A stretch of 59,896 nucleotides of DNA, counting the filler. It is 5 parts of 5 records of this genome, joined end to end, with 100 filler letters (N's around TTAATTAATTAA, not from the genome) between each part and the next. Parts side by side here need not be neighbours in the genome. Positions count along the whole stretch, not along the records: positions 1 to 6,986 come from DRR723986_15151; 4 more parts are not named here. The stretch is one strand, 5' to 3'. How positions within the stretch are numbered: the first letter of the stretch is position 1; each line of letters opens with the position of its first letter. Positions 1 to 44,961 of this stretch are shown piece by piece. Both the position numbers and the translations under genes were made by a program. The notes beneath the pieces are model-generated. The model was not told the DNA's origin. It did not search any database and worked only from the letters and a program-made list of their open reading frames with translations.

Positions 1-30
1 GGCTCGAACCAGCGACCTCGTCGATGTCAA
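1..30 (-). tRNA. tRNA-Val(GAC) 3'-half fragment (att core copy; homology ends at the anticodon loop)
   Basis: Reverse complement TTGACATCGACGAGGTCGCTGGTTCGAGCC = anticodon loop TTGACAT, 3' anticodon stem, variable loop and T-arm GGTTCGA. Sequence beyond 30 is not tRNA-like. Confidence 0.85.
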
Positions 31-94
31 AAATATGAACGGCTAGGCTTTCAGCCAAAAATCAGCTTTCAGCACCATCCCTCGCCTACAGTTA

Positions 95-107
95 AATCAA
101 AGGCTTA
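95..107 (+). promoter_or_regulatory. IHF consensus site in att arm
   Basis: AATCAAAGGCTTA matches WATCAANNNNTTR exactly, 65 nt from the att core. Confidence 0.6.
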
Positions 108-126
108 CCAAACCGTCTTGTCAGTA

Positions 127-147
127 TTGCAAACGGATTTGCAAAAC
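127..147 (+). repeat. Putative integrase arm-type sites (TTGCAAAC, TTTGCAAAAC)
   Basis: Tandem copies at 127-134 and 138-147; TTTGCAAAAC recurs at 6879-6888 on the other side of the core. Confidence 0.6.
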
Positions 148-199
148 CTGAGCACAGTTTATGGCAATCTCAGCCAAGCATCACGCATGGAGGTTTGCC

Positions 200-682
200 A
201 TGTCTGATAATCATGAGGTCACTATTCAACTGCGGGTCCCGGCGGCTGATGCAGATGCAATGGAAGAAGCAGTCAATGAGCTGCTTGCAAAAGCAAAGAC
301 CCAAGTGCGGCGTATAGCAGAAGAGGCAGAGCTTCGGACAATTGAACGTAAAAAGTTCAAGTACAGAACAAAGTCATTCTTCGCCTTAGCACCGGAAGCC
401 TTCAGGCTTTATCAAAAGTATCGCCAAGCTCATGCGTCCGCAAAAGCAACCTATTTGTTTATTGCCAACCAACTCCACTTGGATGCTCCCATAGCTGCTG
501 AAGCTCTCGTTCAAATCCATCGACGCAAACATATTAAGGAGCGCCAGAAAATGGCGCTGAAACTGGCTCGGCAAGGCCTGAGTAATACAGCAATTAGTAG
601 GCAACTGGGCGTATCGACAAGAACCGTTTCAAGGCTGCTTGTACCTCTTCTTCCATCAAAGTTGGGAGGCAAAAATGCATAG
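200..682 (+). CDS. DNA-binding protein with C-terminal helix-turn-helix
   Basis: GGAGG at 189-193 favours ATG 200 over 161; C-terminal GLSNTAISRQLGVSTRTVSRLL is a typical HTH. Confidence 0.75.
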   Translation: MSDNHEVTIQLRVPAADADAMEEAVNELLAKAKTQVRRIAEEAELRTIERKKFKYRTKSFFALAPEAFRLYQKYRQAHASAKATYLFIANQLHLDAPIAAEALVQIHRRKHIKERQKMALKLARQGLSNTAISRQLGVSTRTVSRLLVPLLPSKLGGKNA

Positions 683-971
683 CCTTCCAGCTACATTCGC
701 ACTTTGGCGACTTCAAGGTGAAACTGTTGCAAACCTCTTGTTTGACAGTCGCAGGAAACGCCAGTCCAAGGTGCTGAAAAGCGTTTTGAAAGTACTTGAT
801 CAAATTTGGACAAACCAATTTGGCGACCTGTACGTTGGTGAGCTGGTGCGACTGATCGATCTCCACCAGAAAGACGCCGCTTTGCTAGATGATACTGGCG
901 TTGGTGGTAATGCAGCAAACGATGATGATTTTGGCTTAGTGGCCTGCCCTTCGACCGAAGGGAATGCTTAA
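675..971 (+). CDS. Small hypothetical protein
   Basis: GGGAGG at 664-669; ATG 675 overlaps the upstream stop (ATGCATAG). Confidence 0.6.
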   Translation: MHSLPATFALWRLQGETVANLLFDSRRKRQSKVLKSVLKVLDQIWTNQFGDLYVGELVRLIDLHQKDAALLDDTGVGGNAANDDDFGLVACPSTEGNA

Positions 972-2752
972 TGATCTACACCCTAAAACCAGTTTGCACT
1001 TATGACGCACTGTCACAGCCCCGACCCGGTGGCGCTTTAGCGCCAGTGGTGCGGGAGGGGCTTGACCGGGCGGCGGCTCCTCACGCTGGCCCCGCAGGGG
1101 TCAGAAAACATTCTGACCCCTTGCCTAGCGGCGAGCGATTACTCTTTAAAAAACAACTCGCTTTCTCCAGCCTGTTTTTGAGTGTGGAGTGGTTAAACCT
1201 TTTTCAATTGCTCAATAAAAGCTGTTGTAAACGCGATGTAATGCGTAAATTCGGTTTCGAGAAACAAACCGGCCTCGACTTTATTTTCATGCCGGTTTAT
1301 TCGGTTGAATTTTCCAATTCGGCCTTGAATTTTGCGGATGTATATTTTGTATCTAGGTTCAAAAACCGTGATTATGCCGATAATGGAATTATTCAGAAGA
1401 ACGGCATTATTGCTCATGTTTTCATACACTGGCCTAAAAGGATAAAATTCCTCCACACGTTTTTCCTTCCAGACAGAGCTGTCGAGGTTTTGAAGCGCTT
1501 CAATATTTTTTTTCGCCAGTTCTTGAGAGACTTTGAGTTCTGCGATCATGCCGATTCTTATCGATTTCCGGAGAACATTTCTCTCTTTCTTGGCCTCACT
1601 AGCTCGCTCTTTCCATTCTGCTTGTTGTCGAGCATCCGCTTTTTTGTCCAAACGCAATTCTGCACGCAGTTGTCTAAAAAATCGCTGGTTTGTGTTGCGA
1701 TTGTTCCAAATAGCTATACCGATTGCAGCAAGGCCCGCGAGTGGCCCAGATATAGCCGCGGTAACATCAATCCAGTCTTTGTTACCGGAATAAGAACAAC
1801 AATATTGGGGCTGCCCCAACCAAAAGCCAATGTATCCAGCCGCAAAAATAACAAAAAGCGAAAGACAAAGAGTTTTCCAGTTGAGTTTCAAAATCATTCT
1901 TTTGACCTCTCTGATTTATTTTTCAACGAGCTCAAGACTAGGGTCCGGAGCTTTGGGGAGTTTGGAAAGCCATTTTTCGGTTTTAGCATACCGTTCTGGA
2001 AAATCCTGACGCTGAGCCTCAACAAGGGCATGCATATATTTCACAAGCGTTTTTCGCAGTGTTCCAGCGCTCCCATAAAGTGCGCGAAGGTCAATTGGGC
2101 CTGGGTTCGGTTTATTCAACGCGTCCCTGTATCGCCGCAAAGCTCTCTCATACTTAGATTGATTACGCGCGATTGCAGACACAGTATAGGCCGGCAGCGT
2201 CAACATTCGGTCGCCAAGGCTCTCATAAAACGGTCGAACAGGGTCAATGGCCTTTTTCTCGAAAAAATATTCAATAGCCTCTGCAGACAACTCACTGCTG
2301 CCGACAATGTATTTGAGATCAAAGGCGATATTATCAAGTTCAATTACCAAGTTGGTGCAGATCTGCTCTTGCTCAGCGCGTCTTCTGTTTTCAGAAACCA
2401 ACTCATTTTTTATGGAAATATAGAGTGCAACGAGCCCAGCAAGAGTTCCCGAAAGTGCAGAAAGGTATGGAATGAAATTGGGGTCACGATAATTGAAAAT
2501 AGAGAAGACAAGCAATGTCAGCACCAATATCAGTGCAGGCCAGCTCTTAGTTATTATTCTCTTCATTTTCATTTTTTGATCGCACCTTTTGCCATTCTGA
2601 ATACTAGAAATGTACCTGAAACGCTATCAATTAACGCAAACTACCGCTGTTCTATAGCGGTTCAGTGGATGAAAAATACCAATCCCCCCCTCCCTCTAAT
2701 AGGGGGGGTACTGTCTACAAACCCTCTTAAAAAGAGGGATGCTGGCATATGA
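971..2752 (+). CDS. 593-codon 'bridge' ORF antisense and in register to two cargo genes; product probably not a folded protein
   Basis: SD-like AAGGGA at 958-963, TAATG overlap at start, ATGA overlap with rep at end; stop-free over AT-rich DNA. Confidence 0.5.
   Translation: MIYTLKPVCTYDALSQPRPGGALAPVVREGLDRAAAPHAGPAGVRKHSDPLPSGERLLFKKQLAFSSLFLSVEWLNLFQLLNKSCCKRDVMRKFGFEKQTGLDFIFMPVYSVEFSNSALNFADVYFVSRFKNRDYADNGIIQKNGIIAHVFIHWPKRIKFLHTFFLPDRAVEVLKRFNIFFRQFLRDFEFCDHADSYRFPENISLFLGLTSSLFPFCLLSSIRFFVQTQFCTQLSKKSLVCVAIVPNSYTDCSKAREWPRYSRGNINPVFVTGIRTTILGLPQPKANVSSRKNNKKRKTKSFPVEFQNHSFDLSDLFFNELKTRVRSFGEFGKPFFGFSIPFWKILTLSLNKGMHIFHKRFSQCSSAPIKCAKVNWAWVRFIQRVPVSPQSSLILRLITRDCRHSIGRQRQHSVAKALIKRSNRVNGLFLEKIFNSLCRQLTAADNVFEIKGDIIKFNYQVGADLLLLSASSVFRNQLIFYGNIECNEPSKSSRKCRKVWNEIGVTIIENREDKQCQHQYQCRPALSYYSLHFHFLIAPFAILNTRNVPETLSINANYRCSIAVQWMKNTNPPLPLIGGVLSTNPLKKRDAGI
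1030..1130. other. GC-rich hairpin cluster, candidate single-strand origin (sso)
   Basis: TGGCGCT-TT-AGCGCCA (1030-1045) and AGGGGTCAGAA-AACA-TTCTGACCCCT (1096-1121); TAGCG motifs; lies upstream of the nick site. Confidence 0.5.
1193..1897 (-). CDS. Cargo membrane protein 1 (two N-terminal hydrophobic helices, charged coiled segment, helical domain)
   Basis: 234 aa with protein-like composition; paralogous motifs shared with 1916-2572. Confidence 0.8.
   Translation of the reverse strand: MILKLNWKTLCLSLFVIFAAGYIGFWLGQPQYCCSYSGNKDWIDVTAAISGPLAGLAAIGIAIWNNRNTNQRFFRQLRAELRLDKKADARQQAEWKERASEAKKERNVLRKSIRIGMIAELKVSQELAKKNIEALQNLDSSVWKEKRVEEFYPFRPVYENMSNNAVLLNNSIIGIITVFEPRYKIYIRKIQGRIGKFNRINRHENKVEAGLFLETEFTHYIAFTTAFIEQLKKV
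1916..2572 (-). CDS. Cargo membrane protein 2, paralog of 1193-1897
   Basis: SALSGTLAGLVALYISIKN vs AAISGPLAGLAAIGIAIWN; PVRPFYESL vs PFRPVYENM. Confidence 0.8.
   Translation of the reverse strand: MKMKRIITKSWPALILVLTLLVFSIFNYRDPNFIPYLSALSGTLAGLVALYISIKNELVSENRRRAEQEQICTNLVIELDNIAFDLKYIVGSSELSAEAIEYFFEKKAIDPVRPFYESLGDRMLTLPAYTVSAIARNQSKYERALRRYRDALNKPNPGPIDLRALYGSAGTLRKTLVKYMHALVEAQRQDFPERYAKTEKWLSKLPKAPDPSLELVEK
2601..2630 (-). promoter_or_regulatory. Candidate sigma70 promoter for the cargo operon
   Basis: TTGATA-18 nt-TAGTAT on the minus strand upstream of ATG 2572. Confidence 0.35.
2684..2708 (+). other. Rep_trans/MOB_T-type nick site hairpin (dso or oriT)
   Basis: C7-TCCCTCTAATA-G7. 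The loop contains CTCTAATAG as in the pT181-family dso; the C-run/G-run stem resembles ICEBs1 and Tn916 oriT. Lies 40 nt upstream of rep. Confidence 0.8.
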
Positions 2753-3945
2753 CAAGAAAGCGCTTGGATATTGATCTGCATTCCTGTGAAATCGATTATG
2801 GTTTTCTGATCTGCCATAACTTCGACTGGTGGCAAGAGGCGTTGAACCTCATGGTTCCAGTTACCTTGTGGAATAGCATGCTAAAGTCCAAGGAGGCTGC
2901 CAGAGAGTTAGACGATAGCAACAAGGCTTCCATTTCATTTGTTTTTGGTGGCGAGAAGTTCGAGCTTCAAGCCTACGGCCTGCGAAGCAAAGAGTTTGTC
3001 CTAATCAATGATGATATTCGGTTAGAGATCGGCCGCACCGATACGGCAATGGAATGGACGTTTGGTTGGCGTGCAACAGCCGCTGGCTTATGGGAGCACG
3101 GTGTAAAGGCACTCAGGCACCGTGTTTATACCATGTGCGACAAGGCGGGCCTGCGCCCAAGGGTTCGCGGACAATCGTGGATTAAACTTTCCAGAGCAGA
3201 TTATGCCTTCGATTTTTGGGCACCCGGTTTCACACCGGAAATGGAACCCGCTATTGCCGACAGATTTGTACTGCCTCCCGGTGTTAAAGGCAGTGGCAAT
3301 TTCTATCTAAAAAGCCCCAAAAAAGGCCAGTTTCATGCGCAACTGGAAACCTTCACTATTGGCAAGAAGGGTAGTCTGGAAATCCAGATATATGACAAGC
3401 TCACAGAAATCAGGGAAGCGTCAGGAAAAGAATGGATGCTGGATATATGGGCTGACTGTGGATACCAGCCCCCCGGCGAACCTTCTGATGTTTGGCGGTT
3501 GGAAGTCCGCATGTCTGGTGGCTGGCTCAAATCACGAACAGAAAAAGACCCAGAGAAGTTTTTGAGCCTCATGTGGCAGCTAATTGCGGAAGGCTTGCAA
3601 AGCCGCCGCTTAACGGTCCCACAAGGTGCTGACAGCAATCGTTCGCGTTGGCCTGTTCATCCACTATGGTCCCTTGCCATTGAAGCTGTTGGCGACCCTG
3701 AGGAGTTTGTGCCTGTAGGCCGTAAAATCACTGGAAAGCGTTCTGAGATCATCAGAAAATTCCAAACAGCTATAGCAGGCTATATGCGCACTGCTGCGGT
3801 TGTTGAGCATGGCATCACATTCACGGAAGAAGAACTCACAGAATTAGCGAGCAAGGCGGCGAGAGAGGCGCTTGCTGATAAGGAGCATAGTAAAAAGATA
3901 GCTCGTACGCAGGGACGGTATGAATTTGTGGATGAAGCTCAATGA
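2749..3945 (+). CDS. Rep_trans-family rolling-circle replication initiator / MOB_T-like relaxase
   Basis: Motifs LSRADYAFD, TFTIGKKG, IQIYDK (candidate catalytic Tyr), WRLEVR; adjacent nick hairpin. Confidence 0.8.
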   Translation: MTRKRLDIDLHSCEIDYGFLICHNFDWWQEALNLMVPVTLWNSMLKSKEAARELDDSNKASISFVFGGEKFELQAYGLRSKEFVLINDDIRLEIGRTDTAMEWTFGWRATAAGLWEHGVKALRHRVYTMCDKAGLRPRVRGQSWIKLSRADYAFDFWAPGFTPEMEPAIADRFVLPPGVKGSGNFYLKSPKKGQFHAQLETFTIGKKGSLEIQIYDKLTEIREASGKEWMLDIWADCGYQPPGEPSDVWRLEVRMSGGWLKSRTEKDPEKFLSLMWQLIAEGLQSRRLTVPQGADSNRSRWPVHPLWSLAIEAVGDPEEFVPVGRKITGKRSEIIRKFQTAIAGYMRTAAVVEHGITFTEEELTELASKAAREALADKEHSKKIARTQGRYEFVDEAQ

Positions 3946-4142
3946 CCGCCGCACTTCAATCATATACCCAAAATAGCCCAGCCACTACGGCAAGGCTCGC
4001 CATATCTGGTGGTGACGGCCAACACCAATTTAACAGACCCGGAACCCCCCATAGTTCCTCCCCCGGCATATTGCCGAAACTCTTCGGGCTCATGCCCGGT
4101 AAGACGCCATTAATATTGAAAGGAATTCATTATGGCTACTAA
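3942..4142 (+). CDS. 66-codon ORF bridging rep and the first XRE gene
   Basis: ATGA overlap with rep stop; its own stop overlaps the next start (ATGGCTACTAA); runs over hairpin-rich DNA. Confidence 0.4.
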   Translation: MTAALQSYTQNSPATTARLAISGGDGQHQFNRPGTPHSSSPGILPKLFGLMPGKTPLILKGIHYGY

Positions 4143-4995
4143 CAAACAGAATATCCCTTATGACGAACTGTCCGACTTTGGAGAGCGTCTTCGCTATGAA
4201 CGGGAAAAACAAGACCTCAGTCGACCAGCACTGTCGAAGCTAACTGGCAAAGCTATTTCTGCGCGTGTGATTGCGCACCTTGAGGACGGCAATACGGAAC
4301 CAAAACTCAAGCACAGTGAAATTTTGGCAGAAGTATTAGGCGTTGACGAAGTTTGGTTGAACCATGGCCTAACCAACGAAGACCAAAGCGAGCCAGATCA
4401 AGGCTTTGATAGCGTTCTTGGTGACCCAGTCAACGAATTGGACGAAACCAATTCGGGTGATTTCATGGGTGGTATCGACCAAGAAGCATCTGACAATATC
4501 GATGATGGCCCACAAACATTGGTACCCAGCAATGACAATCAAATGAGGCTCTACGTCGACACTGCATATGAATTGCTGGAGGTAATAGCTGCCATCAGGC
4601 ACGAAGGCTTTTTGCATCATATCAGAAAAATGCCCGGCTTGATTGAGCAAGCCATTGAAACCGGCAAGTTCCTCGAATTATCAGAAATTGAAGAGTTAGC
4701 GTCAGACCACAATGTCAACATTGATGGTGATATCCCCTTTGCGGAGCGCGAACCAACGGAAGATGAAATAAACGAAGTCATTCATCGTCTAATTGATACA
4801 GCGCTTCTTGGTATCGACCTCCATCAAGTGGACGTGGATAGTTTGCTCGCTTTTGCAAAAAGAAATCGAGTTCACCTTACGAGGCTTAACCGAAGGACCA
4901 TCTCAGCGTTGATAAATAAGTTGAGGCCAGTCTATTGGAACAGAGCGCTTGAGGATGGACTAACTGTTTCCACTTTCCTCTCGGAGACAGGCTAG
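4132..4995 (+). CDS. XRE-family HTH regulator with acidic linker and unknown C-terminal domain
   Basis: FGERLRYEREKQDLSRPALSKLT...LEDGNTEPKL...LAEVLGVDEVWL; SD AAGGA. Confidence 0.85.
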   Translation: MATNKQNIPYDELSDFGERLRYEREKQDLSRPALSKLTGKAISARVIAHLEDGNTEPKLKHSEILAEVLGVDEVWLNHGLTNEDQSEPDQGFDSVLGDPVNELDETNSGDFMGGIDQEASDNIDDGPQTLVPSNDNQMRLYVDTAYELLEVIAAIRHEGFLHHIRKMPGLIEQAIETGKFLELSEIEELASDHNVNIDGDIPFAEREPTEDEINEVIHRLIDTALLGIDLHQVDVDSLLAFAKRNRVHLTRLNRRTISALINKLRPVYWNRALEDGLTVSTFLSETG

Positions 4996-5678
4996 TGAAA
5001 ACGGGCTGGATTGACCAAAAATTAGTTCAGCCCAAATTTTGGTTGCTTTTTGTATATTTTATGTCATTATTGGATCATATGTTACTAATTTGTACTATGG
5101 ATACAATTTTGAAATTAAAATCAGAAAAATATGATGCTGCTAAACACTTTGAAAAGCCCGAAACCCTTGGGGATGAGCTTATTCGATGCAGGAAAAGGCT
5201 TGGGCTGTCCCGAACAGAACTTTCAAAGCGTTCAGGCATAGCCGCAAATTCCATATCCAAATATGAACAAGCAGGCCGAGTTGGCGGCCAATACCCACCA
5301 ATACCAAAACTTGCGAAGCTTTGCGTTGAGCTAGGCATTGATGCGCGTGAATTGCTCGCGATGACGCTAGAGGATAATCAGGATGCAATTACTCTGCTTG
5401 AAACTGGAGGCAGCCGGGACGACTATGAAAATCTGATGGGTGAGTTGACCGAGTTCGCAGAAAACCCTCAAAAGCCAATGGTGCTGTTTGACCGGAACAA
5501 CAATATGTTTTCTGTCACTCACATTCCCATGCAACAGCACCTTGCAAACCCATGGGATAAAACAGCAAAATTAAAAGAACCCGCGGAGGCTAGTTTGGCG
5601 ACGAGCTCCACGGGTTCAAATCCAAAATCAACACCAATCGCAAAAAAGGAGCCTGAAGATGGACAGTCCTCAGATTAA
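4995..5678 (+). CDS. Second XRE-family HTH regulator (GTG 4995 or ATG 5097 start)
   Basis: LGDELIRCRKRLGLSRTELSKRSGIAANSISKYE...LAKLCVELGID; GGAGA SD and TAGTG overlap support the GTG start. Confidence 0.85.
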   Translation: MKTGWIDQKLVQPKFWLLFVYFMSLLDHMLLICTMDTILKLKSEKYDAAKHFEKPETLGDELIRCRKRLGLSRTELSKRSGIAANSISKYEQAGRVGGQYPPIPKLAKLCVELGIDARELLAMTLEDNQDAITLLETGGSRDDYENLMGELTEFAENPQKPMVLFDRNNNMFSVTHIPMQQHLANPWDKTAKLKEPAEASLATSSTGSNPKSTPIAKKEPEDGQSSD

Positions 5679-6006
5679 TCCTCCTGATGAAATTGCACAA
5701 GCCCTTGCGTCCCTGCCGCTCTTTTTAAGCGTCAAGCGGGCTGCTGAGTTTTTAGGTTTCTGCGCTTCCACTATCCGAGAGATGGTGAAACGCGGAGAAC
5801 TAACAGCTCTTCGCCCAGAGGGTCGTAACATGCGTATTCCGCGCTATGCCATTACTCAATATCTGGAGGACAACACATGGCACGCCCAAGAAAAGGCCCC
5901 CGGCTCGTCCGTATCAACGGAAAAGACAACTGGTATGTCCGAGATGGACGCGGCACACAATTTACGACAGGAACTGCGGATAGGGAGAGCGCTGAATGCA
6001 CGCTAG
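5659..6006 (+). CDS. xis: Excisionase-like HTH protein
   Basis: FLSVKRAAEFLGFCASTIREMVKRGELTA...RIPR; SD AAGGAG; directly before and overlapping the integrase. Confidence 0.8.
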   Translation: MDSPQINPPDEIAQALASLPLFLSVKRAAEFLGFCASTIREMVKRGELTALRPEGRNMRIPRYAITQYLEDNTWHAQEKAPGSSVSTEKTTGMSEMDAAHNLRQELRIGRALNAR

Positions 6007-6926
6007 CCTCCTATATCGCAAAGAAGGCCATTCCAGCCCAGCCAACAATTGCCCAATTGCTGGATATGAGGATGGAAGACCTGCGAGCACGCAATGTGCC
6101 GTCCGCAAGCAACACTGTGTATCGTCACAATGCCTTGAAGCGCCATTTCGGACCACTAAGGCCGGAACAGCTTTCTATCGCCCTGATCAGCAAATTTCGG
6201 CAAGAGCACAACCATGTGCAAGCGATGCTGCGGGAATATCTACTGGAATTGAAATCAACGCTGAAAATGGCGAAGGACAACAATATAATTGCAACGGTCC
6301 TGCCCATATCAGTGCCAGCCAAAAACCCACCACGAGACAGGTTTCTAAGCCACGAGGAGGCCGCAAAGCTTTGGAACGCGGCTCACGGCGCTCATATCAA
6401 GCTTTTCATTCATCTGGCATTGGTTACCGGCGCACGCAAAGGCGCGATACTACAATTGACGTGGGACCGTGTGGACCTGGACAACGGGCGTTTGGATTTC
6501 AACGACCCGAACTGGCCAATAACCAACAAGCGCCGAACACTATCACCAATCGAACCGGCAGTGATCGAAATGCTGACCGAAGCAAAGACATTTGCAGAAA
6601 CCAACCACGTAATAGAGTTCAACGGGAAACCATTGAAAGACATAAAGAAGGGCTTCGCCTTGGCAGCAAAGAAAGCAGGCCTGAGTGGTGTAACACCGCA
6701 CACGTTGAAGCATACGGCAATATCGTGGCTGGCACAGGCAGGAAGCCCGATAGAACATATTGCTGCAATGACGGCCACAAACGCCAACACGGTGCGCCGC
6801 ATCTATCAGAAATTTGCACCGGAATACCTTCAAGACGAGGCGAAAATACTGTCAAATGCCATGAGTTTTACACACACATTTGCAAAACAGGCCCAATCAA
6901 CACAATCAAGCGAGGCCTCAATATGA
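5877..6926 (+). CDS. int: Tyrosine recombinase / integrase
   Basis: TGARKGAILQLTWDRVDL, TPHTLKHTAISW, C-terminal VRRIY; SD GGAGGA; adjacent to att. Confidence 0.93.
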   Translation: MARPRKGPRLVRINGKDNWYVRDGRGTQFTTGTADRESAECTLASYIAKKAIPAQPTIAQLLDMRMEDLRARNVPSASNTVYRHNALKRHFGPLRPEQLSIALISKFRQEHNHVQAMLREYLLELKSTLKMAKDNNIIATVLPISVPAKNPPRDRFLSHEEAAKLWNAAHGAHIKLFIHLALVTGARKGAILQLTWDRVDLDNGRLDFNDPNWPITNKRRTLSPIEPAVIEMLTEAKTFAETNHVIEFNGKPLKDIKKGFALAAKKAGLSGVTPHTLKHTAISWLAQAGSPIEHIAAMTATNANTVRRIYQKFAPEYLQDEAKILSNAMSFTHTFAKQAQSTQSSEASI

Positions 6927-6958
6927 TTGCAAGTTACTGTAATATAAGGGTTTTAAAA

Positions 6959-6986
6959 TGGTGGTCGGTACTGGGCTCGAACCAGC
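6959..6986 (-). tRNA. tRNA 3' end (T-arm, acceptor strand, CCA), truncated by contig end; att core copy
   Basis: Reverse complement GCTGGTTCGAGCCCAGTACCGACCACCA; overlaps and continues the fragment at 1-30, giving a 45-nt core. Confidence 0.85.
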
Positions 6987-7086
6987 NNNNNNNNNNNNNN
7001 NNNNNNNNNNNNNNNNNNNNNNNNNNNNNNTTAATTAATTAANNNNNNNNNNNNNNNNNNNNNNNNNNNNNNNNNNNNNNNNNNNN
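6987..7086. other. Artificial contig spacer
   Basis: 100 nt of N with TTAATTAATTAA (stops in all six frames) at 7031-7042. Confidence 0.98.
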
Positions 7087-12758: not shown

Positions 12759-12858
12759 NNNNNNNNNNNNNNNNNNNNNNNNNNNNNNNNNNNNNNNNNN
12801 NNTTAATTAATTAANNNNNNNNNNNNNNNNNNNNNNNNNNNNNNNNNNNNNNNNNNNN
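12759..12858. other. Artificial contig spacer
   Basis: N run with TTAATTAATTAA at 12803-12814. Confidence 0.98.
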
Positions 12859-24370: not shown

Positions 24371-24470
24371 NNNNNNNNNNNNNNNNNNNNNNNNNNNNNN
24401 NNNNNNNNNNNNNNTTAATTAATTAANNNNNNNNNNNNNNNNNNNNNNNNNNNNNNNNNNNNNNNNNNNN
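24371..24470. other. Artificial contig spacer
   Basis: N run with TTAATTAATTAA at 24415-24426. Confidence 0.98.
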
Positions 24471-44861: not shown

Positions 44862-44961
44862 NNNNNNNNNNNNNNNNNNNNNNNNNNNNNNNNNNNNNNN
44901 NNNNNTTAATTAATTAANNNNNNNNNNNNNNNNNNNNNNNNNNNNNNNNNNNNNNNNNNNN
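44862..44961. other. Artificial contig spacer
   Basis: N run with TTAATTAATTAA at 44906-44917. Confidence 0.98.

Follow-up and report, generated by a model that had tools for sequence, protein, structure and literature searches.

Termination-reinitiation coupling relies on overlapping stop and start codons and on a ribosome-binding site that is hidden in a hairpin and melted by the upstream ribosome, as at the trp operon junctions and between the coat and replicase genes of MS2. For leader and upstream open reading frames (ORFs), it is translation rather than the peptide that matters, whether in attenuation or as a shield against Rho-dependent polarity. Phage and viral genes that are overprinted on the same strand have constrained residues of their own and suppress synonymous change in the host gene. 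In phage lambda, sib forms an RNase III hairpin that lowers Int (retroregulation). According to a published review of Tn916, the transfer genes of this element are poorly transcribed when it is integrated, and transcripts that come from the xis-int side extend into them once it has circularised (PMC5812530). Here we describe a small mobile element represented by the first contig (DRR723986_15151, positions 1..6986) of a 59,896-nt stretch of DNA, referred to below as the window, in which a second reading frame is open along almost the entire integrase gene, int. Comparison with related elements suggests that this frame is probably a ribosome-relay ORF, which would couple the excisionase-like gene xis to the genes at the far end of the element only after excision. 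The frame is apparently selected for staying open and not for encoding a particular protein.

According to this reading, ribosomes on transcripts of the excised circle would end xis at 6004-6006, re-initiate at the overlapping ATG 5996 and read int in the +2 frame without making integrase. Translation would then continue over the otherwise non-coding region of the attachment site attP and end at 205-207, on top of the ATG of orf1, the first gene beyond attP. The xis-int-attP transcript would thereby stay covered by ribosomes, and ribosomes would be brought to the orf1 start site, which is apparently folded in a hairpin. Expression of the far-end genes (for Orf1, the protein of 593 aa and the Rep_trans-like protein) from the xis side would have to await excision, which joins the ends of the element. 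In the integrated state, the same frame would run into the host tRNA and end nowhere in particular. The benefit may lie in re-initiation at a structured start, in protection from Rho-dependent polarity, or in both. We infer translation of the frame, re-initiation, a coupling or anti-polarity purpose and any role of Rho from sequence comparisons.

The frame of ATG 5996 is +2 relative to int (5877..6926). Because each codon of this frame (hereafter, the alt frame) is composed of the third base (N3) of an int codon and the first two bases of the next one, an alt stop requires a T|AA, T|AG or T|GA junction. Only two stops are present in this frame within int, at 5981 and 5993, the latter directly before ATG 5996. 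From this ATG the frame is open for 310 codons in int and for about 20 codons past the int stop, up to the end of the contig (5996..6986, + strand). When the identical 13-nt ends of the contig are joined, it continues at 14..207 (+ strand), crosses the attP region and terminates at TGA 205-207, reaching 394 codons in total. Both lengths are as given in the original prediction, made from the letters of this DNA alone, namely about 330 stop-free codons to the contig end and 394 residues on the circle. The same prediction held that such a frame would ordinarily meet many stops, and about 12 are indeed expected here. Specifically, 89 of the 350 int codons begin with AA, AG or GA and the frequency of T at third positions (T3) is 0.143, which gives 12.7 alt stops. 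Synonymous shuffles of int (20,000) contain 11.85 stops on average, with a probability of 5e-5 for two or fewer; their longest run is 230 codons, and none of the 20,000 reaches a run of at least 310 codons. Shuffling of codon order (20,000 replicates) gives a mean of 12.8 stops and a longest run of 291 codons, so that equally long open frames, the control proposed with the prediction, were never seen in either set. The +1 frame of int has 23 stops. The 36 long ORFs of the window, used as a background for the depletion, have 890 stops in their +2 frames against 1042 expected, a mild depletion, and the next-longest +2 run among them spans 138 codons. An antisense gene was rejected on account of the 8-13 stops found in each of the minus-strand frames, and TpA dinucleotide bias was rejected in view of the T|AT, T|AC, T|GC and T|GT junctions that int does contain.

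Relatives of int were collected from one genome-contig scan, which yielded a single relative, from genome samplings, from a metagenome scan and from viral contigs, and their +2 stops were counted against synonymous shuffles. The first metagenome scan found none and the second (alignment A2) found 54 loci; two further genome samplings, at the class and family levels, returned only genomes already in the set. In the FastTree phylogeny of 127 distinct proteins, 18 genes were labelled open, that is, with the longest run covering at least 78% of the gene. One of them (L149) is uninformative, since at 72% GC only 1.3 stops are expected. Most open genes form three groups. Clade A (support 99) contains the window int, L021, L001, L007, L037, L022 and L008, to which L160 and L168 were added later. 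Clade B (L031, L032, L033) is its sister group, and the distant clade C consists of genes from viral contigs (L097, L114, L116, L132, L139/L142, L148). L034 is open as well, whereas its sisters L036 and L081 are not. A tblastn search of a phage collection with a clade C integrase revealed no annotated close relative, the best match being an unannotated record with 56.7% identity.

Relatives that are 40-81% identical to the window Int retain the open frame despite saturation of the 4-fold degenerate sites. The identity of 4-fold N3 sites between the window int and its relatives is at random expectation for L021 (36/105 versus 33.0), L001 (31/88 versus 25.9), L007 (21/65 versus 17.4) and L008 (16/60 versus 17.2). 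Thus, every lineage has re-drawn its synonymous sites and yet still avoids alt stops. Clade A genes have 0-4 alt stops versus 6.8-16 expected, all located before approximately codon 46 except for one in L021; the scattered stops in close homologues that would have spoken against the prediction are therefore not seen within this clade. By contrast, non-open relatives of comparable identity and GC content (L023-L030, L075-L079; 42-44%, GC 0.48-0.49) have 15-18 stops versus 18-23 expected. The difference is most apparent when junctions are pooled. From codon 60 onward in 19 open genes, T is found before AA, AG or GA codons in 2 of 1245 cases and before other codons in 667 of 4118, compared with 240 of 1340 and 843 of 4442, respectively, in 21 non-open relatives. 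C fills in for the missing T before AA, AG and GA codons in the open genes, so that the low T3 of int is in part an expected by-product. Taken from these comparisons, openness is under selection, in lineage after lineage.

The relative L167 is informative in this respect. Its integrase is 56% identical to that of the window and is nested in a starred four-row clade with the window int, L021 and L001, but its alt frame contains 17 stops versus 19.6 expected. L167 has no xis-sized gene directly before int; the preceding gene, for an HTH_3 protein, ends about 200 nt upstream, and the cargo (Rep_1, YobI-like nucleoside triphosphatase (NTPase)) differs as well. Being non-open although nested among open genes, L167 shows that openness follows architecture rather than integrase lineage. 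The L167 element itself (G502:C1:1913000-1932900) is about 10 kb long, adjoins tRNA-Thr and has a clade A integrase without an overlapping xis. It carries genes for a YobI-like P-loop NTPase of 1209 aa (E 3e-117), for a replication protein of the Rep_1 type and for two HTH_3 regulators; since an att repeat of just 15 nt was found, its limits are uncertain.

A conserved ORF of this length would normally be taken for a gene, and the rival explanation that survives best, unlikely as we consider it, is a true overprinted gene. The +2 frame would then encode a functional basic and disordered protein of about 390 residues, produced at full length only from the circle, and the stop/start overlaps at its ends would be a mere sign of a compact operon. 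Conservation of the ORF, its start codon and its Shine-Dalgarno (SD) sequence fits this explanation, as do the similar length in all circles (388-406 codons), an extent far greater than shuffles allow and openness in homologues of clades A/B and C. De novo overprinted proteins are, furthermore, commonly disordered. The residues tell otherwise. The N3 sites of int, which are the first positions of alt codons, are saturated, and thus the alt residues are free to change; even where the integrases are 81% identical, 4-fold sites agree no more often than expected at random. Pairs whose Int proteins are 40-49% identical share 0.17-0.24 of their alt residues, versus 0.16-0.19 in the synonymous-shuffle null (z mostly 0-2), so that divergent pairs do not differ from the null. 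A small excess over the null exists in several pairs and is restricted to the closer ones, where z reaches 4-5.7. The composition of alt products is indistinguishable from that of the +2 frames of non-open relatives translated with stops removed (mean isoelectric point 10.7 in both, R+K 0.17). No homologues were found at E<=1e-3 among 5.8 billion clustered proteins (length range of 181-578 aa), and no Pfam or PHROG family was matched. The AlphaFold2 model has a mean predicted local distance difference test (pLDDT) score of 29.5, with no residue above 50, which is weak evidence given a shallow alignment of four rows, two of them identical. In L021, moreover, a stop roughly one quarter of the way along is tolerated. 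Purifying selection on alt residues and suppression of synonymous change in int, the latter proposed as a check with the original prediction, were both looked for and not seen. The suggestion of an overprinted protein-coding gene, one of the two originally offered, thus finds no backing in synonymous sites, residue identity, composition, homologues, families or predicted fold, and the second frame does not look like a conserved protein-coding gene.

What the frame would serve, if not a protein, is indicated by its far end. We took 20-kb regions around integrated relatives, located the att direct repeats and joined the ends in silico. Circles were rebuilt for the window element, L155, L156, L157, L168 and L160/L173, while L021, L037, L022 and L031-L034 were left out. 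Direct repeats of 51, 19, 77 and 51 nt delimit elements of 9297, 6115, 6331 and 6022 bp in L155, L156, L157 and L168, respectively. For L160/L173 (genome G565), the far end lies on another contig and was located through a 50-nt repeat; a search of G565 with the L155 Orf1 protein gave no match. In all six joined circles, the alt ORF is 388-406 codons long, with the first base of its stop 5 nt past the A of the first-gene ATG (ATGnnTRR). On the window circle, the stop at 205-207 overlaps the orf1 ATG at 200 (GGAGGtttgccATGtcTGA; ATGtcTGA), and the corresponding contexts are ATGtgTGA in L155, ATGgaTAA in L156, ATGgtTAA in L157, ATGgtTGA in L168 and ATGcaTAA in L160/L173. GGAGG or GGGAGG is present 6-8 nt upstream of the orf1 ATG in five of the six circles. 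The first gene of the window circle, orf1 (200..682, + strand), encodes 160 aa with a C-terminal HTH_23 domain (Pfam, 31.3 bits versus a cut-off of 24.6), and its equivalents in L155, L156 and L157 also match HTH_23. In the integrated forms, the alt stop falls 9, 36, 54 or 199 codons past int and bears no relation to any gene. Contigs of clade C already have the attP form, in which a partial tRNA separates int from the following gene, and their alt stop overlaps or abuts the next start in all four distinct contigs (ATGgcTGA, GTGA, TAGATG and ATGA). This count derives from five loci, including the near-identical pair L139 and L142; L132 and L097 run off the contig.

The attP region between the two genes is also kept open. 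Across the attP spacers of nine elements (153-275 nt), the alt frame has a single stop, the terminal one, versus 23 and 21 in the other two frames. The 246-nt spacer between int and orf1 in the window has no alt-frame stops, compared with four and three in the other frames. The probability of an open spacer, estimated from mononucleotide shuffles, ranges from 0.006 to 0.36 per element. These observations bear on a second rival, in which the ribosomes provide cover for int only: translation in the +2 frame would shield a poorly translated int mRNA from Rho or RNases and thus allow Int to be produced, and the position at which the frame ends would be incidental. This explanation, close to the second idea of the original prediction, accords with selection on openness alone and with an int start that lies inside xis. 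It leaves unexplained, however, the open frame through 153-275 nt of attP and the constant +5 offset on the next ATG in six of six circles, and we regard it as doubtful, somewhat more so than an overprinted gene. The originally proposed route for ribosomes leaving xis to pass over the int mRNA without making integrase does fit the comparative evidence, namely starts at the xis stop in 19 of 19 open loci and selection on openness alone. Its suggested purpose, decoupling of read-through from Int dose, does not suffice on its own: the route runs on over attP and ends at the start codon of the circle's first gene, which points to excision-dependent coupling of the far-end genes.

The near end of the relay ORF is equally well defined. 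Its start site (5982..5998, + strand) consists of an SD-like AGGGAG at 5982-5987, an alt-frame TGA at 5993-5995 and the ATG at 5996-5998. Thus, the AGGGAG reported 8 nt ahead of the ATG is where the prediction had placed it, and so is the overlap of this ATG with the end of xis, since ATGCACGCTAG (5996-6006) includes the xis stop TAG at 6004-6006, 8 nt after the A of the ATG. Among the open loci, an alt-frame start is found between -11 and +10 nt from the xis-frame stop in 19 of 19 (13 ATG and 6 GTG), with offsets of -8 or -5 in clades A/B, except for L033 (+4), and mostly +10 in clade C. Stop and next start therefore lie within a few nucleotides of each other, as in coupled cistrons, at the xis-alt junction of each of these 19 loci. 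Such an alt start occurs in only 3 of 14 non-open loci, where the ORFs that follow have just 5-30 codons. Clade A/B relatives have GGGAGG or GGAGG followed by ATG or GTG 5 or 8 nt before the xis-frame stop, and in clade A an alt-frame TGA is located 0-2 codons ahead of the alt start. This junction could in principle be a site of frameshifting, with a +1 shift at the end of xis or a -1 shift from int yielding a Xis-alt or Int(N)-alt fusion. Three frames do meet within 11 nt here, with an SD-like element upstream. Nevertheless, retention of ATG or GTG at the junction in all 19 open loci, the clade A TGA that would halt ribosomes shifting earlier, the clade C start located 10 nt after the xis stop and the unconstrained alt residues make a frameshift product very improbable; no slippery motif was seen either, though no systematic search was made. 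The last rival, that chance and composition (a T-poor third position together with the residue content of the family) leave the frame open, draws on the low T3 of int (0.14 versus 0.19-0.32 in other window genes) and on the long open alternative frames common in GC-rich relatives such as L149, but retains next to no probability and was rejected, given that shuffles preserving T3 expect 11.8 stops, the depletion is specific to phase and context (2/1245), the +1 frame has 23 stops, openness recurs in independent lineages with saturated 4-fold sites and the nested L167 has 17 stops.

A relay ORF is, in our view, the simplest account of a frame that is selected for openness only, begins at the xis stop, traverses int and attP, terminates on the next ATG in the circular form alone and loses its openness where the xis-int overlap is lost. 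Predicted hairpins before orf1 and the lack of terminator-like sites speak in its favour. A predicted RNA hairpin (160..202, + strand), formed by pairing of 160-167 with 195-202, includes the orf1 AUG (200-202) and part of its SD (GGAGG, 189-193); the fold of positions 120-215 has an energy of -27.1 kcal/mol (z -1.9). Hairpins that enclose the SD and/or the AUG before orf1 are likewise predicted for L156 (z -2.1), L157 (-2.0) and L168 (-2.8), that is, in four of the five clade A/B elements folded, whereas in L160/L173 a CCTCC facing the SD was noticed by eye only. No terminator-like site is present on the + strand from 5996 round to 207, and a consensus scan for sigma-70-type signals found no promoter-like or terminator-like sites on the + strand at 6290..6986 and 1..200.

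Same-strand ORFs whose stops and starts overlap or abut form a chain that runs the full circle in the window element, L155 and L156 (9, 11 and 8 ORFs, respectively), under a permissive rule that allows TTG starts and short ORFs; under the same rule, reverse-strand chains never close. The window chain runs through 200-682, 675-971, 971-2752, 2749-3945, 3942-4142, 4132-4995, 4995-5678, 5659-6006 and 5996 round to 207, and every base of the window circle lies within a same-strand ORF. For L157 and L168, the forward chain that starts at orf1 spans three to five ORFs before it breaks, some 3.2 kb on; in L168, a reverse-strand ORF follows the break. Across these five circles (the window, L155, L156, L157 and L168), the far-end genes are co-directional with xis-int and lie downstream of them only on the circle.

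Several observations weigh against a relay ORF. Closure of the window circle relies on the 13 nt shared by the contig ends, and that of the L156 circle on an exact repeat of 19 nt. By a crude test, the alt stop also touches the start of an ORF of at least 60 aa in 16 of 78 non-open loci. Against this background, stop/start contact alone is weak evidence, and the evidential weight lies on the constant offset, the SD and the identity of orf1 (HTH_23 in the window, L155, L156 and L157). The first long downstream ORF of non-open attP-form candidates is on the same strand in 22 cases and on the opposite strand in 20, and co-directional genes after attP are therefore insufficient to predict an open frame; open and non-open loci were not separated by this crude strand survey of downstream ORFs. 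The z-scores of the hairpins are modest (-1.9 to -2.8), L155 lacks a hairpin (-0.4), both the alignment fold of the orf1 leader and its covariation are weak, and orf1 has an SD of its own. The far-end genes may also have promoters of their own. The closest relative, L021 (81% identity), has an alt stop at int codon 118, which arises from one synonymous difference (CGT, versus CGG in the window). L034 has an alt stop six codons before the end of int, and the frames of L040, L128 and L016 are partly decayed. The ORF is thus dispensable in some lineages. Finally, there may be a disordered and basic product with a function that depends only on its composition. With these points taken into account, we still favour a relay ORF for the element described here. 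That mobile elements more generally can carry relay ORFs, hundreds of codons long and open purely for the passage of ribosomes over a gene and a recombination site, creating a translationally coupled and in some cases ring-shaped polycistron that exists only after excision, we would put at about an even chance.

The remaining features of the locus concern the contig, its ends and its gene content. The window consists of five contigs joined by N runs (6987-7086, 12759-12858, 24371-24470 and 44862-44961) around a TTAATTAATTAA spacer, so that the small element has no physical linkage to the chromosomal contigs that follow it (icd, cspD-like, clpS and others). All listed genes of contig 1 are on the + strand. 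Its two ends carry the same 13 nt (1-13 = 6974-6986) and, when joined, give a circle of 6973 bp. The junction corresponds, on the minus strand, to the 3' half of a tRNA-Val-like sequence, that is, to attP. The first half of the attP core (6956..6986, minus strand) is the 3' end of the tRNA-Val-like sequence and continues on the circle at 14-33, positions 1-13 of the second half (1..33, minus strand) being a duplicate of 6974-6986. It is a near base-for-base match to the att direct repeats of integrated relatives adjoining tRNA-Val (51 nt in L155 and 50 nt in L160/L173); ARAGORN detected no complete tRNA at the circle junction. In L157 (G282) and L168 (G720), the int ORF reaches into the att repeat and the tRNA-Ala sequence, with its stop within the repeats of 77 nt (L157) and 51 nt (L168), and hence the attachment site overlaps the int coding region. 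In the phage-like clade C contig L116, the first gene past attP (3693-4295), to which the relay ORF would pass ribosomes, codes for 200 aa and has a DnaJ (J) domain at the C terminus of its product (33.1 bits versus a cut-off of 27.8).

After orf1, the window element encodes a 98-aa ORF (675-971, + strand), the 593-aa protein (971-2752, + strand), which matches no family, a 398-aa protein (2749-3945, + strand) with a weak Rep_trans match under the cut-off, a 66-aa ORF (3942-4142, + strand) and two HTH_3 regulators (4132-4995 and 4995-5678, + strand). The xis-like gene (5659..6006, + strand; 115 aa, stop TAG 6004-6006) is directly upstream of int. Its product has an HTH_17 domain at residues 22-72 (Pfam, 42.1 bits versus a cut-off of 27) and matches PHROG 66, 'excisionase and transcriptional regulator'. 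The tail of xis, 42 codons long, lies over int codons 1-42 in the +1 frame and may be functional in itself or belong to the ribosome route. An ORF in the xis frame that overlaps the first 33-60 int codons, likewise in the +1 frame, is present in the whole family, non-open members included. In open clade A/B members, a conserved Leu codon of int (CTA, TTA or TTG) and the G or A after it make up the xis-frame stop; CTA and TTA are codons of generally low usage. A strong skew of A over T is found over xis and int (window 5501-7000; AT skew 0.17-0.25), and T3 is 0.14 in int versus 0.26-0.31 in the remaining genes of the same small element.

The int gene (5877..6926, + strand), with its own SD GGAGGA at 5865-5870, encodes a tyrosine recombinase of 349 aa (Pfam Phage_integrase, 55.1 bits versus 27.1; PHROG 1 integrase, E 1.9e-42). 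Y310 of this protein aligns with the catalytic Tyr of the solved integrase 5c6k. The motif HTLKHT (residues 275-280; window 6702-6719) aligns with HALRHS of 5c6k, which places K278 in the position of the Arg of H-x-x-R. By this alignment, the canonical second Arg of the H-x-x-R motif, which we take to be catalytic, as is presumably the His/Trp position preceding the Tyr, is not present in Int, and K278 is invariant among the four clade A integrases of alignment A2. The His/Trp ahead of the catalytic Tyr seems to be replaced too (MTATNAN versus LGHTRI in 5c6k).

If the relay reading is correct, selection for translation as such can maintain an open frame of about 390 codons. The rule by which a conserved ORF is a gene would be blurred, which bears on how overlapping ORFs are judged, and some of the long 'spurious' alternative-frame ORFs in other genes may find an explanation. 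The element would sense whether it is integrated or excised by means of an ORF that only recombination makes whole; such an ORF would be a translational sensor of the excised state and would represent a class of selected ORFs without a protein product. Single changes that are synonymous for Int can close the frame, an experiment that nature has performed once, in L021. For annotation, the signature would be a start at the xis stop, avoidance of T before AA, AG and GA codons and a stop on the first ATG past attP. A full-text literature search revealed no account of an ORF that is overprinted on an integrase gene or extends across attP. The parts themselves are known, namely translational coupling, read-through across att and ORFs that matter for their translation only. 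To our knowledge, their combination has not been described before, nor has its scale, with about 390 codons that are free of coding constraint and become whole only through recombination.

Each of the described systems shares some of these parts with the relay ORF. Like the overprinted genes of phages and viruses, it is a long alternative-frame ORF within an established gene and is conserved among relatives, but neither constraint on its residues nor suppression of synonymous change is seen here. Selection on translation rather than on the product is a property it would have in common with leader ORFs; these are short and located upstream of the genes they control, whereas the relay ORF covers a whole gene and a recombination site. 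The similarity to lambda sib is that the sequence past att, downstream of int, differs between the integrated and excised states and alters expression. While sib lowers Int, the relay ORF would raise the expression of genes beyond att. As in translational coupling, overlaps of the ATGnnTRR, ATGA and TAGATG types occur at both ends of the ORF, and hairpins over the SD and AUG are predicted before orf1. The upstream cistron, however, is in this case about 390 codons long, apparently has no coding role, is situated inside another gene and is complete only after site-specific recombination. The resemblance to Tn916, compared here by its description, is in the overall layout, with xis and int at one end and co-directional far-end genes that are downstream of them only on the circle, so that expression is tied to excision. 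The elements described here are 6-9 kb in size, target tRNA genes and come from alphaproteobacterial or marine sources or from phage-like contigs. The link in Tn916, as described, is transcriptional read-through, whereas here it would be an ORF of about 390 codons that is overprinted on int, spans attP and has stop/start overlaps at both ends. The relay arrangement may thus be viewed as a translational counterpart of the arrangement described for Tn916.

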